Below are positions 7,289 to 63,850 of a stretch of DNA of 64,000 nucleotides, one piece after another; the first letter of the stretch is position 1; each line of letters begins with the position of its first letter. The stretch is from positions 86,858,139 through 86,922,138 of the forward strand of contig NC_057718.1 in NCBI RefSeq assembly GCF_004010195.1. The letters are read 5' to 3'. The notes beneath the pieces were generated by a model. The model was not told the origin of the DNA. It was given only the letters and a program-made list of their open reading frames with translations, and did no database searches. The translations under genes and the position numbers were made by a program. This DNA is from Chiloscyllium plagiosum (taxonomy: Eukaryota).

Positions 7289-7565
7289 TTTGAAGCAGGT
7301 CAGAGGAAGTTCACACAACTGATACCTGAGGTGGATCAGTGGTGCTGGAAGAGCACAGCAATTCAGGCAGCATCCGAGGACAGGCAAAATCGACGTTTCG
7401 GGCAAAAGCCCCACTGATACCTGAGGTGGGGGTGCTATGCTATCGGGAGAAGGTGGAGTTTAAAAGAATGAGAGATGATCACACTGAAGCATAATATCCT
7501 GAGGGGACATGACAGGGTGGATGCTGAAAACTAGGTTCCCCTTTTGGGAGAGACAAGAATTAGAA
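7289..7565 (+). repeat. Degenerate CR1 3' fragment; left arm of an inverted duplication with 9801-9978
   Basis: After removing the PLE insert it aligns closely with the reverse complement of 9801-9978. Confidence 0.8.
7335..7412 (-). mobile_element. Short PLE terminal-repeat insertion (truncated hammerhead) with 17-bp TSD
   Basis: Flanked by actgatacctgaggtgg at 7318-7334 and 7413-7429. Minus strand contains GGGC-tttt-GCCC-GAAACGTC but lacks CTGANGA. Confidence 0.8.
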
Positions 7566-8974
7566 ATGGAAATGAGACACAATTCTGTTCTGTCAGTTTC
7601 AGGCAGTGTAACATTACACTTTTGTTAAGAAAACCATAACCATTATAAATGCTTGGGTGAGTTTCAAAAGCTATTAATGGTTTCCAGTCAGTGTTTTCCT
7701 AGTTTTAACTAGGAAAGACTTTAATGTAAACTGTTACCTATTTCTTTATTTTCTACTATTCTATGAAGTAATACTTACTCCTACTACCTCACACCGAAGT
7801 CTTTTTTTATCTAGCTATCTTGATATGTAAGATGGCGTCATGTGTGGCTACATTATACACTTTTCACTGTACTCCTAAAATCTAAAATCTACACCTTATC
7901 TAAGTATTGATTCAAGAACCATCCAAACTTTTAAGAAGTTGTAATAACAGAATGCATCTTTGATGTAGTTAACCATGTGTTTACAAACACAATAGATACA
8001 TAAACTAATACATTTTCTGTTAATCCTAAAGCAGATTTTTTTCTGGTAATGATGATAGAATGCTTTATTTCAAGGTTTTATTAGACTGTTAAAGTTTAAT
8101 CTTTTTCCAGTTTTTAAAAAAATGATTTTCACTGCTATTACTTAGCTCCCAAGGACTATACATAGTGCATGCTGGTGAGTGACTATGGAAGATGATGAAG
8201 GTGATATGGGGATCTGACAGGGTATGGAGATGGCATTTCCCTACCCGAGGGGAAATGGTATGGAAGTGGTGATTGGTGAGTGTTATGGGTAATCTGAAAT
8301 CACATCGGGTGACAGGTGAAGTTAGTGAGGAATGAGAGGGATATAGAGGTGGCATGGGCTATCTGAGGGAGCACTGAGTAGGTCAGAGATGAGAAAGTGA
8401 GGAGTAAGCTTTAGGAGGCTTAATTTTCAGAGCTTGGCTGATATACTGGAAAACGTAGACATGCCTTTGTCACGTCTGCACCTATACTGCCATAATTAAT
8501 TAACTTTAAACCCAAGCCATGTATGAAAGGACACAAACCTAGGGAAGGGTCATTGTGTTGAAAGGTGTAAAAGCACGTGGGCCAGACTTTCCTGAGAGCA
8601 CATACCCAAATCCGTACCCAAGCCCTTCTTGGTCATTGTGTTTCATTGGGAGGCATTAACACCACTCAGTGGAGAAGAATGTTACTAATTGTTTGGCACA
8701 GCAGCCCTTAATCTAACAAGACACTAGCCAGTTTGAGGCTTAGCAAATTAACCATGAGGTGGATCAGTAGTCACAGAGGAAGCAGATAGAATCCAACCCA
8801 GGGCTGGAAATTTCGTTTCGCTATATGACAACAGATCACCACTGCAGAAAAACTTGTTGAGGCAAAATTTTGTACTTCACTTAATTGAAGACGTACTCAG
8901 CCTGACTGACATCATGCTTGATTCCAAGGCGAAGACCAACGCTATCATCTTTGGTTGAAACCTTCTTTTGCCAA

Positions 8975-9077
8975 AGTTGAAAATCACACAACACCAGGTC
9001 ATTGTCCAACAGGTTTAATTGGAAGCACTAGCTTTCAGAGCACCCTCTCCTTCATCAGATGGTTGTCAAGTACTTGC
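8975..9077 (-). mobile_element. Short PLE terminal-repeat insertion (second family) with 10-bp TSD
   Basis: cttttgccaa at 8965-8974 and 9078-9087; same terminal sequence as 33195-33290. Confidence 0.8.
9026..9062 (-). ncRNA. Minimal type I hammerhead ribozyme motif
   Basis: Minus strand: ccat-CTGATGA-A-GGAG-agggtg-CTCT-GAAA-GC-TA-gtg. Core intact, palindromic AGCT in place of helix III, 3-bp helix I (cat/gtg). Confidence 0.65.
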
Positions 9078-9466
9078 CTTTTGCCAAGGTTTTGTGTCCA
9101 TTCTTTAGGAACATCTCCCTCTCAAAATCTATAAGCGTAAGTAGTTTCACTCAGAAATGACACTAAATGATATGGGATAGTGACGCCTGGTTAATATTTA
9201 TTCAAGGTTATGATGTATTCTCTTAACACTGGCAATCGTGTCCCAGTTACATCCTGGAACTTTCACAAATCAGTCTCTCATTTCCATGTAGCAAAAGCAT
9301 TTCTATTCATGTACTGTACAACTGGGTACTAGGTAATTACAAAGTGCTTCACAAAATGCCAATGAATATACAAACATACGGATTGGGCCATTCAGCTCCT
9401 CTAACCCCACTCAGTCTTTCAGCAAGATCGTGGCTGGTCTGATTTTGGCCTCAATATCACATTACC

Positions 9467-9502
9467 ATTCCTGAAGAAGGGCTTATGCCCGAAACGTCGA
9501 TT
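9467..9502 (+). ncRNA. Minimal type I hammerhead ribozyme motif (sense to GRM1 pre-mRNA)
   Basis: CTGAAGA 9471-9477, extra A 9478, stem II GGGC/GCCC 9479-9490 with ttat loop, GAAA 9491-9494, C-GTC with predicted cleavage after 9498; palindromic ACGT in place of helix III. Confidence 0.7.
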
Positions 9503-9596
9503 CTCCTGCTCCTTAGATGCTGCCTGACCTGCTGCGCTTTTCCAGCAACACATTTTTCAGCTCTGATCTCCAGCATCTGCGGTCCTCACTTTCTCC
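9468..9596 (+). mobile_element. 129-bp PLE terminal-repeat insertion with perfect 13-bp TSD
   Basis: tatcacattacca at 9455-9467 and 9597-9609 flanks ttcctgaagaagggcttatgcccgaaacgtcg...ctgcggtcctcactttctcc. Confidence 0.85.
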
Positions 9597-10016
9597 TATC
9601 ACATTACCACTTACCTTGATAACCTTTGACTCTCTTGTTAGTCAATAATCTATCTACCTCTGTCTTAAACCTGTTCAATGACCCTATCTCCATTGATGTC
9701 ATTGAAAGAGAACCCCAAGGACTCATGGCATTCTAAGAGAAATAAAAATCCCCTTAAATTTCTGTCTTAAATGGGAAACCCCTTACTTTCAAACTATGCT
9801 TCTCATTCTTGTCTCTCCCAAAAGAGGAAAGTAGTTTTCAGCATCCACCCTGTCGTGTCCCCTCAGGATATTATGTTTCAGTATGATCATCTCTCATTCT
9901 TTTAAACTCCATCTTCTCTCAGTAGCATAGCACCCCCACCTCAGGTATCAGTTGTGTGAACTTTCTCTGATTTGCTTAAAAAAAAATTAAAAACAGTAGT
10001 CAAAATGGTTTGATGA

Positions 10017-17575: not shown

Positions 17576-17692
17576 AGGCGAAAGTGAGGACTGCAGATGC
17601 TGGAGATCACAGTCAAGATTAGAGTGGTGCTGGAAAAGCACAGCAGGTCAGGCAGCATCCGAGGAGCAGGAGAATCGACGTTTCGGGCAAAA
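17576..17692 (-). mobile_element. PLE terminal-repeat fragment, truncated within hammerhead stem II
   Basis: Reverse complement of the 9468-9596 element up to tttgcccgaaacgtcg. Confidence 0.75.
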
Positions 17693-22570: not shown

Positions 22571-23098
22571 AAAGTGAGGCGCTGGAAAAGCACAGCAAGA
22601 GAAGAGCAAGAGAATTGACATTTCGGACATAAGCCCTTCATCATGAATGTGGGGGCTGAAGGGGGCTGAGAAATAAATAGGAGGGTGGGGTAGGGGAGTG
22701 AGGGAGCAGGGAAAGTGATAGGTAGATGCAGGTGGGCAGTGGTGGTGATAGGTCAGAGGGGAGGATGGAGTGGATAGGTAGGAAGGAAGATGGACAGATA
22801 GAACAGTTCAAACCACTCTCTTGAACATATCTGTCCATCTTCCTTGCCACCTATCCACTCCACCCTCCCCGCCAACATATCACTATCACCCCAACCTGGA
22901 TCTACCTATCACCTTCCCAGCTACCTCACCCCCACCCCTAACCTCCTATTTATATTCCTTTCATGCTCCACATTCCTGATGAAGGGCTTATGTCGTGAAA
23001 CATTGATTCTCCTGCTCCTCAGATGCTGCCTGACCTGCTGTGCTTTCCCAGCGCCATACATTTCAATTCTGATCTCCAGCATCTGCAGTCCTCACTTT
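22571..23098. mobile_element. Foldback element made of two inverted PLE terminal repeats
   Basis: Termini aaagtgagg (22571-22579) and cctcacttt (23090-23098); 18-bp perfect inner arm 22783-22800 vs 22828-22845; degenerate hammerhead in each arm; 13/15 TSD-like match 22553-22567 vs 23101-23115. Confidence 0.8.
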
Positions 23099-32890: not shown

Positions 32891-35561
32891 ATGTGGAGGC
32901 ACCAGTGTTGGACTGCTCAGGAGTCCGATAACACCAGGTTATAGTCCAACAGGTTTATTTAAAATCACAAGCTTTTGGAGCGATTCTTTGGGTGAAGCAA
33001 AAGAGAAGCACACAGGCACAGAATGTACAGGCAGAGAGACCAATGGGCAGAGAGATCAAAAGATTGCACAAATGGTATGGGTGGAGTGTCAACAGGCTGA
33101 ATAGCAGGTCTCTGCAGGTGATCGAGAGTGCCAGATGGTGTGAGTAAAGTGTCAATAACAAGTGAAGGGATGACCTACAATCTGAGTAAATGAAGTTAAA
33201 AATCACATAGCACCAGGTTATAGGCCAATGGGTTTATTATGAAGTACTAGCTTTTGGAGCACTGCTCCTTCATCAGGTGAGACAGGGTTATAAGACACAG
33301 AATTTATAACAAAAGATTTCAGTGTCATGCAATTGAAATGATATATTGATTCAATAAAGTGCTGCAACATGACCCAAGGTCTTGGTTGAGGCTGTCTTCA
33401 TGGGTACGGAACTTGGCTATCAGTTTCCGCTTGGCAATTCTATATTATTGTGTATCTTGAAGGCTGCCTTGGAGAATGTTTACCCGAAGATCGGGGGCTG
33501 AATGTCCTTGATAGTTGAAGCATTCTCCATCTGGGAGAGAACATTCCTGTCTGATAATTGTTGTCCATTCATCCATTGTTGTTGCATCTGTATGGTCTCA
33601 CCAATATACCATGCCTTGGAGCATCCTTGCCTGCAGCATTTATGAGGTAGACAACATTAGGGTAACATGGTGGCTCAGTGGTTGCACTGCTGCCTTACAG
33701 TACGAGGGACCCAGGTTCAATTCCAGCCTCAGGCGACTGTCTGTGTGGAGTTTGCACATACTCCCAGTGTCTGCATGGTTTTCCTCTGGGTGCTCTGGTT
33801 TCCTACCACAGTCCAAAGATGTGCAGGTTAGGTGACTTGGCCATGCTAAATTGTTCATCATGTTACCTGCATTAGTCAGAGGGAACTGGGTCTGGGTGGG
33901 TTACTCTTCAGAGGGTTGGTGTGGACTTGTTAGGCAGATGGGCCTGTTTCCATGTCATAGGGAATCTAATCTGAAAAAAAATTGGCCAAGTCACGTGACT
34001 ATCTGCCATGTACATGGTGGGTGATGTTCCCACATGTGATGGTAGTATCCATACCGATGATCTGACATGTCTTGCAGCTGTTACTGTGGCAGGGTTGTGT
34101 GGTGTTGTGGTCGATGTTATTCTGAAGGCTGGGTAGTTTGCTGCAAACAATGGTCTGTTTCAGGTTTAGCGGCTGTTTGAAGGTGAGAAGTGAATGTGTA
34201 GGGATGATCTTGGCAAGATGGTCATTATCATCTATGACAGGCTGAAGGCTGTGAAGAACATGGCGTAGTCTCTCTGCTCTGGGGGAGTACTGAACAACGA
34301 AGGAGACTCTATCATTCATGACCTGTATCTGTCTTTTAAGGAGGTCATTGTGGCTTTTTGCTGTGGCATGTCAGAACTAGCAATCAATGAGTTGAGCATT
34401 GAAGCCTATTCTTATGAGAGTGTGCCTGATCTGAGCAAATCCTGTGTATGTGCAGGGCTTGTCCATGGTATAACATGTTGAGGGTGGAAGCTAGAAAAGT
34501 GTAGCATCGTGAGGGTATCTGTGGGATGGAGATGGAGTGAGGTACTGAAGTGTCCATCCTTGATGGAGATGCGTGTGTCCAAGCATGAGATTGATTCTGA
34601 AAGGTAGTCCATGATAAGACTGATGGTGAGATAAATCTTGTTGATATTGCTATGCAATTGATACAGTGATTGCTCACCAAGAGTCTAAAGGAAGAAAATG
34701 TCATCAATGTATCCGGTGTATAGTGTTGGTTGGAGGTCCTGCACAGCAAAGAAGTCTTGTTCGAACATGTGCATGAAAATGATGGCATATTGGGGTGAAA
34801 CTTTGGTCCCCATGGCTGTGTCTGGATGAAGAACTGGTTGTCAAAGGTGAAGAAGTTGTGATTGAGGATGAGGCGGATGAGTTGTAGGATGGTGCCTGGA
34901 GATTGGCAGTTGTTGGTATTGAATACTGAGGCTAATTGCAGCGATGCCGTTATCATGGGGGATGCTGGTGTAGAGTGCTGAAACCTCTATTGTGATGAAG
35001 AATGATCCTGTTTTGAGTGGTCCATGGGTGCTGTGTTTCTGTAAGAAGTCTCAAGTGTAGTGACAGAAGCTGGGGGATCCTTGTACAATGGTTTATTGTC
35101 CTGTTTAGATACTATCACCTTGATAGATTGTTATGATCTCTCTACCTTAATTAGTTTTGTAGAGCTTTGGATTACTTATTACTTTGGTTAGACCCTCGGC
35201 ATGCGACTCTTATAATTATTATGTTATCCCAGTCACCTTATTTTTGTTTTTTTGTAATTATCTTTCTGCCTCATTTAATCAGATTATAGGTCATCCCTTC
35301 ACTTGTTAATCAGCTGTTGACACTTTACTCATACTGTCTGTCACTCTTGATCACCTGCAAAGACCTATTATTCAGCTTGTCGACACTCCACTCAATTGTA
35401 TGATCTTTTGACCTCTCTGCAGATTGGTCTCTCTGCCTATAAATTCTGTGTCTGTGTGCATCTCTCCCACTTAACCTGATGAAGGGGTAATGCTCCAAAA
35501 GCTTGTAATTTCAAATAAACCTGGTAAACTCTAACCTGGGGTTGTGTGACTTCTGACCTTG
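32891..35561 (-). mobile_element. 5'-truncated Penelope-like element (RT + GIY-YIG endonuclease remnants) with inverted terminal pseudo-LTRs and 11-bp TSD
   Basis: RT: ILQLIRLILNHNFFTFDNQFFIQTQ, YIDDIF, ISCLDTRISIKDG. Linker FKQPLNLKQTIV...PCHSNSCKTC. NVVYLI...WYIGET endonuclease. 32920-33190 is the reverse complement of 35270-35550; tcatcttcctg at 32880-32890 and 35562-35572. Confidence 0.88.
33660..33975 (+). mobile_element. HE1/V-domain-type tRNA SINE nested in the PLE endonuclease region
   Basis: Head, V-domain and (aatct)n tail; splits the PLE frame between HVHGR and NVVYLI. Confidence 0.85.
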
Positions 35562-54239: not shown

Positions 54240-54340
54240 ATAGACAGGAATTGCTGGAGACATGCAGCTGGTCTGGTAACATCGGTGGAGAGAGAAACAA
54301 GTTGAAGTTTCGAGTCCAAAAATGACTCCTCTTCAGAAAC
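54240..54340 (-). mobile_element. PLE-derived short element with hammerhead core, in the putative GRM1 3' UTR (antisense)
   Basis: Minus strand 54338-54301: tt-CTGAAGA-G-GAGTC-atttttg-GACTC-GAAA-CT-TC-aac. Confidence 0.65.
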
Positions 54341-57300
54341 TTGTTTGAAATGCCACAGGAAGTTGGCTCTTGTTGAGATGCTTTCTTTCATACTCAGTGT
54401 TGGAACAGTAGGATCTATTGATGAAACAAAGCTGTGGTTGCCAGATGCATTGGAAAAGCTGCAGAATCTGCAGTTTTACTCTCTGGAGAGCAATGATTAT
54501 AAATAAACTTCTTCTTGAGATATTTTGTGATAATGAACAATCCATAAGATTCAGAATATGGGCCATGATTCAGGCTTGTCACCTTTATTTTCTGAAATAA
54601 ATAACTCAGCATTGATCTACTTTCGGGATGAACTTGAGGTAAAACCAGGGAATAGCTTTGAATTTTCGGCTCTGTTTTTTTTGGAAGATTCCTTTGGCAA
54701 TCTTGCACAAATGGTTAAAAAGCAACATGATCTATGGTGTGCAATAGTGATAGCAGTGGTCAGTGCTTCTTATGTAATTTCCATCTCAGGTACACAAACA
54801 ACCAACGTATCGTTAAATTCCAACGCATTTGACAAAGAAAGATGCAGTTTTTGTTCTCATTTCTGTTTCATTGTTTCTATTTTCTGTCAATCTTAATCAG
54901 TCTGACAATCTGAAACTTGTACTTAGTGCAAAACAAACATACATTTGTAGATATACTTTCTAAGTTTGAAACTGCAACATGAATTTTGCCCAGAAGTACT
55001 TTGTGTTTTCAAATATTCTGCAACGTAAAGCTTGAAGTGTAAATTATAGAAATATTCTGCCTCTGCAGCACCCAATTTCTCAAGCATGAAGTGGCAGGTT
55101 ATTTTAAAAAAACACTCTTATCCCCCTATCCACAATCTTGTGTTAAACACTTCTGAGATCATCTGAAACAGAAACAGAAAATGCTGGAAACATTCAGCAG
55201 GTCACACTCTTTGTCTCTCCACAGATGCTGCTTGACCTGCTGATTACTTCCAGCATCTTCCAGTATTTCAGATTTCCAGAATCCACAGTATTTTGCAAGG
55301 TAGTGATCATGATCCCCATGTGGTACATCACTAGATTCAACACCTACAACATCACATTTTAACCATTTACAGATGCCAGCACCTAGGTTCAGTTAGTAGC
55401 AGTAACACCTCAAGGACAGAAGATTGACTGAGAGAATTAAGCGCATGATCTAGGCTGACATTCCATTCGATATGAGGGAATCTTTCAGATGAAATATTAG
55501 ACTAAAATCCTTCCTATGTGTCCTTTCAAGCTAATCTAACAATCCCTGCAGTATTCAGAAAAGCAGGGGTGTTCTCCTTAATGACACAGCCAATGCTTAT
55601 CTCTCAATCAACATCATGAAGAACAGTCATCAACAACAATTGATATTCGTAGGAGCTTTCTGGACACAAATTGGTTGTTGTGTCTCTGACACTAGCATAG
55701 TCAATACTTCAGGAATACTTCATCATCTGTAAAGTATTCCATGATGATCAGAGGTCATAAAAGGGTCCCTTTTTCTATTGGAACCTTCATAAATCTTGGG
55801 CCAAAGTTATGATAGACAATTGTTCCCAAAGGTGCTCTGTGATAAACTGACCCACTTCATGCTCCCATGGCTGCACTCAGTTAGAATTGTAACACCACTG
55901 AACTTATTCTGCAATTGTGACCAGAAACCATAATTTGAAAACAGCCTTCTACCACAACCTTTGATGTTATTTTTCCATATAAGCTATAGTCCTAAATCTA
56001 AATATACCTCTCCACCTCTTTCCCTTAACCACGTATTTAATCTTCTCTTACATGTTGTTGTAGCCTCAATAAATGTAAGGTGTTCACCTTTGTCACTAAA
56101 ATTAAGACCATGCATTCAGCTTCCTCTGCTGTTTCACTCCTATTAACCCCATCAAGGCAAAGGGTCCCCTACACACAATCTGAACTTGCACCTTTGTCTC
56201 CTCTGTGTCCCCTCATGCCCTCTCTGAGCTCACCTTGTCCATGAACCCTTGATCATATGCCCACCACACTGCTGACTATCTCTACTGATATGATTGCAGT
56301 TCTCTCTCCTGAAAAGATTCTTCCCTCCATATTGGCCATTTTTAAATCTCTCAGAATCATCCATTTTCAAAAGGCTCACCCTTAACCTGTCTATCCATAC
56401 TCATTGCTGACCACCTCCAGCTCCCTTGCCTGGCTGAAGCCTTTTTAATGTTGTATGGCTTACCAGGCTCTCCCAAAGTCACAGTGGTAGCTGGTAGGCA
56501 TTTGCTATGAGAGCTGAGCCTTGCAAAGTTGGCCCTTAAGTACTTAGTGACTTCTTCCAGCTATGCAACAATATTCTCCTGATTAATCCCTCAGTGACGT
56601 TCAGATTCTGCCTTGCGCCGTTCACCAGTTGTGATGCTAACTAGCCTCTGACCTCCACCACCTGGGAGGACAAGGACAGCGGACCCATGGGAACACCACC
56701 ACCTGCAAGTCAACACATTCGACTTAGATGTACATCACCTTCATCGCTTATTGGGTCGACATTGTGGTACTCACTACATATCAGCACTGTGGATGCAGCG
56801 CCACCACATGGACTGCAGCGACTCAAGAAGGTGATGCACCAGCGAATACCGACGGCCATCCAGGATGGGCAATTAACGCCAATAACATTCGCATCCCAAA
56901 AATTGGTAACACAAACCACTGAAGGAGCTTTTGACTTAAGAGGCCAAGTTAACAGCCAGCATCAGAACATTTAAGATGCTTGATCCTGGGGAAAAAAAAC
57001 ATTGAGTCGAGCCTTGACTTTTTCCAAGTTGATTACCTACAGCATAAGGAGCAGTAATTTGTACCGGCTTCCGCTTAGATTTTATCTGTTCCCTTGAAGT
57101 AAAAATTGCCAAGTATTTAAAATTTAATTAAACCAAAGGATGCGGTGACCAGTCTGTGTGAATTGAGAAACTGGTTTAATTCTGACCTAATTGCGTATCC
57201 TGTTATTATTTGTGTTCCACATAAGAAATTCTAGAAGTGCTCCAAGTAAATAAACACTGCGTCCCTGCACTCTCCATCTGGGGCCTTCCACACGCCGCAA

Positions 57301-63064: not shown

Positions 63065-63850
63065 GGCTCGGGCTGCCTGTGCGGGAATGCGGAAGCGCTG
63101 AGGGCCGCCCAGAGGCGGCTGGATGGCGGACGCTGTGGAGAGCGGTGCCGGGGGCTCCGAGCATCTCTTCAAGGTGCTGGTGATCGGGGAGCTCGGCGTC
63201 GGCAAGACCAGCATCATCAAGCGGTACGTTCACCGGCTCTTCTCCCACAATTACCGCGCCACCATCGGAGTGGACTTCGCCCTGAAGGTGCTGAACTGGG
63301 ACGCCAGCACCTTGATCCGGCTGCAGCTCTGGGACATCGCAGGTAGGAGCCGGGGGGTGGGGGACAGGGACAGGCTGGGTCACCCTGGGGGGGGTGCAAT
63401 CAAGAATCACGGGAATTGCCTGTTTCCAAGTTCCCTGCTGGACACCAGCAGTGACATGGTTAATCCACGGGGCCCTGGGTTTGTGAAGGATTGCTTTGGG
63501 GGTGGGGGGGGGGAAGAGACAAGCGTGTGCCTTCTCCCGTTAACACTGAGACCGGAGCAGCCTGATACAGTGCACACACACACACACACCCGCCCCAGGG
63601 TGGGCTGTCATTCAGCGTCTCTCTCCCCCGCCCGACTCTCTGCTCGCCCTGGAATTTCCTGGCCGCCTCTCAGCGCGCTTCCCAGCCCCTTTGCACCCAC
63701 CGTCTGAATCTTCACCCGCCCCGGCACTCGGGTTTTACACACGGAATGGTCGCGGAGAACCAACTGGTCCCAGACAGCCGACCGGACAGAGCGGTCACCC
63801 GGGACGCGGATGCAAAGCGAGGGGTCCACCAAGTTCAGCCGCCTTGCGAA
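63065..63850. promoter_or_regulatory. CpG-rich region over the RAB32 5' end
   Basis: Abrupt rise in GC and CpG density relative to the rest of the window. Confidence 0.7.
63123..63342 (+). CDS. RAB32: RAB32 exon 1 (Rab32/38 subfamily small GTPase)
   Basis: ggATGG start; EHLFKVLVIGELGVGKTSIIKRYVH...YRATIGVDFALKVLNWD...RLQLWDIA(G); WDIAG variant of the Rab32/38 family; CAG|GTAGGA donor. GELGVGKTS and the position downstream of GRM1 favour RAB32 over RAB38. Confidence 0.93.

Follow-up and report, generated by a model that had tools for sequence, protein, structure and literature searches.

We find that, judged by its sequence, a 129-bp insert in an intron of the Chiloscyllium plagiosum GRM1 gene belongs to a very abundant Penelope-like element (PLE) of the Neptune type: it is one copy of the end module in which the element carries its hammerhead. 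The explanation that we favour, and consider probable, is that this insert is a run-off cDNA from an internal start of reverse transcription in the front module of a capped, uncleaved element RNA; one copy alone does not tell a front module from a rear one. All coordinates below refer to the window, i.e. the whole 64-kb stretch of DNA that was analysed.

The insert is bounded by an exact 13-bp direct repeat (9455–9467 and 9597–9609, plus strand), in agreement with the perfect target-site duplication described in the initial annotation. While the chance of finding an equal 13-bp repeat anywhere in 1.1 kb is p ~0.015, this one is more than chance because it is placed exactly on the family ends and because 13 bp is the median duplication length in the family (target-site duplications were found in 36 of the 150 non-inverted copies examined). 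We number the family from core C3 (9471 in the window) as +1, so that A 9467 is -3, T 9597 is +126 in reference copy L064, and the predicted cut follows +28 (9498). Since the A or CA that closes the left repeat (9466–9467) and the T that opens the right one (9597) are family end letters as well, serving also as the first one or two letters and the last letter of the unit, the true unit may span 9467–9597, with one to three letters of the duplication representing microhomology. This unit (9467–9597, +, -3 to +126) is a PLE terminal module of the long-end type, i.e. a pLTR core plus tail. It comprises the family 5′ boundary together with the 5′ strand of helix I (9467–9470), the minimal type I hammerhead motif (9471–9498), the 3′ strand of the weak helix I (9499–9502) and an optional tail of ~35 nt (9562–9597, left border approximate) that separates the short zone of 3′ ends (+81 to +95) from the long 3′ end (+121 to +126), all on the plus strand. 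Transcription would start at A 9467, which, read against the initiator consensus, has an initiator-like context in ORF-linked copies.

The best PDB match of the 7TM exon of the host gene is mGlu1 (600 bits, versus 508 for mGlu5), which identifies the gene as GRM1. As its plus-strand exons lie on either side of the insert, ~4 kb before the window (L177) and at ~20.2–20.4 kb, the insert sits in sense within a GRM1 intron of ~24 kb, just as it was first annotated. Downstream of GRM1, positions 63102–63400 (+) hold the first exon of a small GTPase-like frame, which we take to be a Rab-like small GTPase.

The hammerhead core at 9471–9498 is intact. A motif descriptor matched 29 times in our 638-kb genome sample and not once in any of the five shuffles that served as control; an Rfam scan returned no hammerhead family at E<=10, with 7 chance-level matches. 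The features of PLE minimal hammerheads are present, namely the conserved core, an extra base after A9 (here A), the G10.1-C11.1 pair and a palindromic 15-16 region (here ACGT), next to a 4-bp stem II with a tetraloop. Motif and family comparison thus support a minimal, dimer-type hammerhead, as had been suggested at the outset. Helix I, previously called weak, consists of two pairs, a U-U mismatch and one pair, where minimal PLE hammerheads have about 4–5 bp, and is predicted not to close: in ViennaRNA, stem II alone reaches -7.9 kcal/mol in the monomer, compared with -5.2 kcal/mol for the helix-I-closed form, and the best homodimer prediction pairs across the cut site, not through ACGU. Folding of the module as a whole is not unusual (z -0.19).

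As for the covariation of stem II proposed as a check in the initial annotation, no compensatory change was seen within the family, variation being found in N7 and loop II; across the families of this genome, stems differ yet pair, and the palindrome is ACGT in 224 of 301 cases, AGCT in 14 and a CpG-decay form in 46. Pairing stems and the switch of palindrome between families suggest that the fold is kept in the source elements. In 85 older copies the core is more constant than positions +33 to +79 (0.946 versus 0.888, p 0.0009, uncorrected for CpG decay), and there is no such difference in 119 young copies (p 0.41). Other hammerheads were encountered along the way. A decayed copy of a second family, with a 5-bp stem II and an AGCT palindrome, lies at ~8960–9065 (-); by eye, 12 copies of this second family start just before the core and have both short and long ends. 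A hammerhead-like motif at ~54300–54345 (-) is of another type, its helix I being longer and its 15-16 region non-palindromic, and a third type, in which A9 is followed by T and stem II is longer, occurs at five loci (L135, L280, L051, L104 and L009).

The PLE origin proposed for the insert is borne out by related loci. In L064, an 11-bp duplication encloses the module together with a GIY-YIG frame and a 3′ UTR, all of them in sense; the endonuclease scores 23.6 bits against PF01541 (cut-off 22.6), and in L255 it reaches 21 bits, below the cut-off. The parent ORF also has a reverse transcriptase (PF00078, 36.9 bits, L247), motifs of which are found in L280 between two modules as well. A CX4CxxC linker precedes the endonuclease in L248, L254 and L255; according to the accessible text of PMC8557442, a CX2-5CxxC linker is a mark of Neptune and Nematis. 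The Neptune type is assigned here by domains and linker, the latter being a Nematis feature too. As in EN+ PLEs, the family has an optional ~35-nt tail and adjacent inverted copies. The module is also found upstream of the ORF start, where the sequence goes on beyond +126, reaching an ATG near +163 and a long frame (L263, L274, L280 and L284). Modules on both sides of the ORF are seen in separate or N-gapped copies only: N gaps interrupt the long copies, and none of the 15 long loci holds an intact full-length element in one piece. In L263, L204 and L274 the copies follow a front module into the ORF start before jumping to another module, a jump that may reflect a template switch between the two. 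Locus L250 (7027–7682) has a 73-bp linker/endonuclease piece in approximately nine tandem repeats, beside an inverted module. By eye, the window contains two PLE-like ORF remnants on the minus strand, one at 1–555 resembling the N-terminal frame of the insert's family and one at 33999–34986 with RT-like and linker-like motifs.

The family is far from rare. The 30-nt core has 29,143 exact genomic copies (0 for the reversed control). With a natural 645-bp copy as query, we found 113 matching segments in 638,421 non-N bases of a sample made up of the window and 60 further stretches, three of which adjoin the window while the others lie at round coordinates. This amounts to approximately one related segment per 5.6 kb, extrapolating to ~630,000 genome-wide. 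Six related segments, three per orientation, lie within the 64-kb window itself; five older family copies, in both orientations, are located at 683–727, 7328–7411, 17576–17692, 22604–22791 and 22967–23098. The rarity and the relevance to GRM1 implied in the initial annotation are thus not supported, related segments being this frequent and lying in both orientations. Close relatives of the module are also present in sequencing runs from organisms A and B. One other copy, L002, is 99.2% identical to the GRM1-intron copy, and both carry a rare G at 9581.

The copies have fixed ends. Their 5′ ends are mostly at the front edge of the hammerhead rather than at the cut site, and their 3′ ends fall at two sites, which answers the question, raised together with the original claim, of whether genomic copies share their ends. 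On one contig, the first 95 distinct copies with an exact core include 70 that start within -11 to 0 (34 simple inserts and 36 beside an inverted partner), 24 that extend at least 12 bases upstream and one that abuts a gap. The upstream-extended copies, about a quarter, are ordinary truncations. For 95 segments reaching +60 in unselected DNA, 62 starts are within -12 to +9 and 11 further upstream; 7 are at +10 to +25, one is at +26 to +32, 9 are later and 5 are at gaps. Best matches that run into ORF-side sequence start at -3 or later in 28 of 30 cases (one being the query locus), including four at -3 itself; two begin further upstream, at -12 and -23, and none before -23. An extreme random 5′ truncation, one of the two origins considered initially, is at odds with 5′ ends that pile up at one edge. 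Beyond a single G, nothing common was found at this edge by eye in 100 listed contexts, and a splice acceptor or shared upstream exon was rejected. A TATCA target preference in the first 30 loci proved to be a selection bias, since the query had included window flanks, and was gone in unselected copies. In RNA reads there are loose ends at -4 and -3 and an approximately tenfold step in depth at the module; no pile-up of molecule starts or ends was seen in the 2% of a single-cell polyA library that was read, a sample swamped by copies on both strands.

Directly before the first A (-3) there is an excess of G: genome-wide we count 3017 G versus 2016 A+T (0.60, compared with 0.26 expected at 41% GC), a figure inflated by inverted junctions. 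We classified junctions by eye in 100 listed contexts per search, leaving inverted, complex and upstream-extended ones out of the simple class. Among the contexts listed, G precedes -3 at 20 of 38 simple junctions (p 0.0004), compared with 6/24 and 9/32, i.e. 15/56, at the next two junctions (Fisher p 0.016 versus 20/38). G is also present in 11 of the 14 fillers at inverted junctions in the contexts listed, again by eye, where no target DNA is involved, and at 4 of 5 of the listed contig joints back to 9467 the filler ends in G. A copied-cap G is a signature known from L1 work, and a copied cap would explain the extra G seen here. Since the duplication usually includes the G of simple copies (as in 7 of the 8 distinct G-start copies for which a duplication was called), a target preference could contribute to the excess. 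Furthermore, the front edge is not one base sharp, as C is as common as G at -4 in the unselected sample (10 C and 11 G of 25). We infer that the front edge is the transcription start and that the G is a copied cap.

The 3′ ends are bimodal and ~35 nt apart: 38 of the 95 exact-core copies have the long end, 54 the short end and 3 another one. In unselected DNA, 3′ ends cluster at +81 to +95 and +121 to +126, and alignments of an older subfamily end at +111. Among 264 long-end copies, no shared 3′ flank was carried along other than host repeats and ORF-side sequence belonging to the element. Head-to-head pairs mostly combine the two ends. Of 97 such pairs, 19 have an arm too short to class, and among the 78 classifiable ones 74 consist of a long and a short arm (approximately half expected), with 3 long plus long and 1 short plus short. 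Arm identity within 42 young pairs is 96.8%, versus a mean of 94.9% for shuffled partners (best of 500, 95.5%). This greater likeness is expected if both arms have one source, and gene conversion would fit it as well. By analogy with the anole element, we infer that the two 3′ ends are start sites of reverse transcription. According to the accessible text on that element (PMC11167929), its reverse transcription begins at two positions within the RNA that flank the tail and match its ends; both target strands are cut and then extended, and the template is mainly uncleaved RNA. The transcription start of Penelope is located in the pLTR, according to the parts of PMC2377424 available to us.

The run-off explanation would combine these elements as follows. 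The element RNA would start at -3 and carry the module at both ends. The element protein would nick the target and start reverse transcription within the RNA, for the GRM1-intron copy at the +126 site of the front module, and the reverse transcriptase would halt at the RNA 5′ end, probably capped, immediately upstream of the uncut ribozyme. Starting in the rear module, it would produce long copies truncated to varying degrees; starting in the front module, it would run off after about 93 or 130 nt. With a protein dimer priming one site from each nicked strand, a single priming event would give a simple insert such as the GRM1-intron copy, and priming from both nicks would give a long-plus-short inverted pair.

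More tentatively, and as a conjecture that we regard as plausible rather than probable, we propose a two-site insertion rule for PLEs: a dimer would use one nicked strand to prime at the long site and the other to prime at the short site, with capped, uncleaved RNA as the template, and front-module starts would mass-produce units of ~93 and 130 nt. As such starts would yield run-off units en masse, the dispersed single hammerheads in PLE-bearing animal genomes would for the most part not be random truncations but strong-stop-like products, each a record of the transcription start. Retroviral strong-stop DNA is a short cDNA that is primed internally and extended to the 5′ end of the RNA, and L1 twin priming produces inversions through priming on both nicked strands; the likeness is one of analogy only, in that the PLE unit would be target-primed and integrated directly. 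The end statistics of the family bear on how PLEs form tails and inverted repeats, as well as on the job of the hammerhead; they predict a precise transcription start, two reverse transcription start sites with each strand using one of them, and template ends that are not set by the ribozyme.

A self-propagating, non-autonomous family, in which solo or rear modules have a promoter of their own, are transcribed from the same start and are recopied in trans in the manner of SINEs, strikes us as unlikely. It would provide for the fixed ends, the huge copy number and the near-identity of L002 to the insert down to the rare G at 9581, and a rear pLTR is able to drive downstream transcription in D. 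virilis (accessible text of PMC2377424). However, when variant sets (no tree was built) were compared among 200 solo or inverted, 84 rear-type and 16 front-type copies, the solo copies shared loop II and downstream variants with ORF-linked copies and had no common private variant, contrary to the separate non-autonomous lineage that had been entertained at first. The lack of a common 3′ flank among the long-end copies speaks against self-propagation, too.

We give similarly little credence to a truncation hotspot, i.e. that reverse transcription from the rear module stalls or switches at the hammerhead front edge owing to RNA structure, a bound protein or fold-back. Such a hotspot leaves unexplained why the G excess is limited to the position before A -3, and while many junctions at the front edge do use short self-complementary words and 24 of 95 copies do read past it, the copies that run into the ORF start almost never extend upstream (28/30) and the module is not unusually structured. 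That 5′ truncation and inverted copies are general among PLEs, as described in the accessible text of PMC8557442, is nonetheless in its favour.

Starts at the cut site are rare. Junction-pattern matches number 250 at +29 and 130 at +30, of which 58/100 and 34/100, respectively (first 100 each), are true junctions by eye once point mutants are set aside, giving ~145 versus 44; starts at -3 yield 6,080 matches, counted by a different pattern. A minor class of copies from cleaved RNA is possible, with microhomology at +29 as a confounder. That the ribozyme sets the template end, or acts on the GRM1 pre-mRNA, is very improbable: several families of the genome retain the core, stem II and palindrome and starts at +29 are in ~3-fold excess over +30, but only 1/95 unselected copies starts near the cut site, the closed monomer is predicted to be less stable than stem II alone and the homodimer to pair across the cut site, monomers were inactive and dimers weak in the available text of PMC4209133, and copies lie everywhere, in both orientations.

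Under the run-off explanation that we prefer, the GRM1-intron copy itself is likely an inert passenger, given that helix I is predicted to stay open in its monomer and that no same-sense partner lies next to it. No reads fell on its unique flanks in sequencing run X19, which has no bearing on its expression. This single insert is ordinary, and there is no sign of a GRM1-specific role.

Parts of this picture have precedents. Minimal hammerheads in pLTRs and as dispersed single motifs are already on record (PMC4209133), as are one-end tails and inverted copies (PMC8557442), to go by the accessible texts. For shark PLE hammerheads, strong-stop-like PLE products or PLE twin priming we found no paper, in a search that was thin on subscription journals and did without Repbase and Dfam. 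What is new here are the extra-G and long/short-arm counts, with the proviso that the supplements of PMC4209133 and PMC11167929 may hold similar end profiles.

As far as the accessible text of Cervera and De la Pena 2014 (PMC4209133) describes them, the pLTR hammerheads of Neptune, Poseidon and Xena share with the insert family a type I core without helix III, an extra base between 9 and 10.1, the G10.1-C11.1 pair, the palindromic 15-16 region and an occurrence mostly as dispersed single copies with some opposite-strand pairs. The insert family differs in its weaker helix I and 4-bp stem II and, whereas that study takes single motifs for probably truncated PLEs, in its fixed 5′ ends. In PAc Poseidon of Anolis (Frangieh et al. 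2024, PMC11167929; available text), the hammerhead similarly lies ~110–125 nt upstream of two 3′ end sites that bound an optional tail. An uncleaved RNA template and priming of both strands, reported there, are only proposed for the insert family, which in contrast has a Neptune-type linker and a first ATG ~163 nt after the core instead of in stem II; the main text of that paper gives no counts of solo run-off copies or of long/short arm pairing. The EN+ PLEs of Craig et al. 2021 (PMC8557442), as presented in its accessible text, have 5′-truncated copies, an adjacent inverted copy and a 30–40 bp tail often at one end only, just like the insert family, in which, however, module-only copies predominate and the one-tail rule is near strict (74/78). 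Finally, the non-LTR retrozymes (Li et al. 2026, bioRxiv 10.64898/2026.07.22.740005; available text) are likewise non-coding, carry a type I hammerhead and are related to PLE pLTRs, but they are defined as tandem repeats of at least two consecutive units that each have a hammerhead, whereas the insert described here is a single unit between target-site duplications and its paired relatives stand head-to-head.
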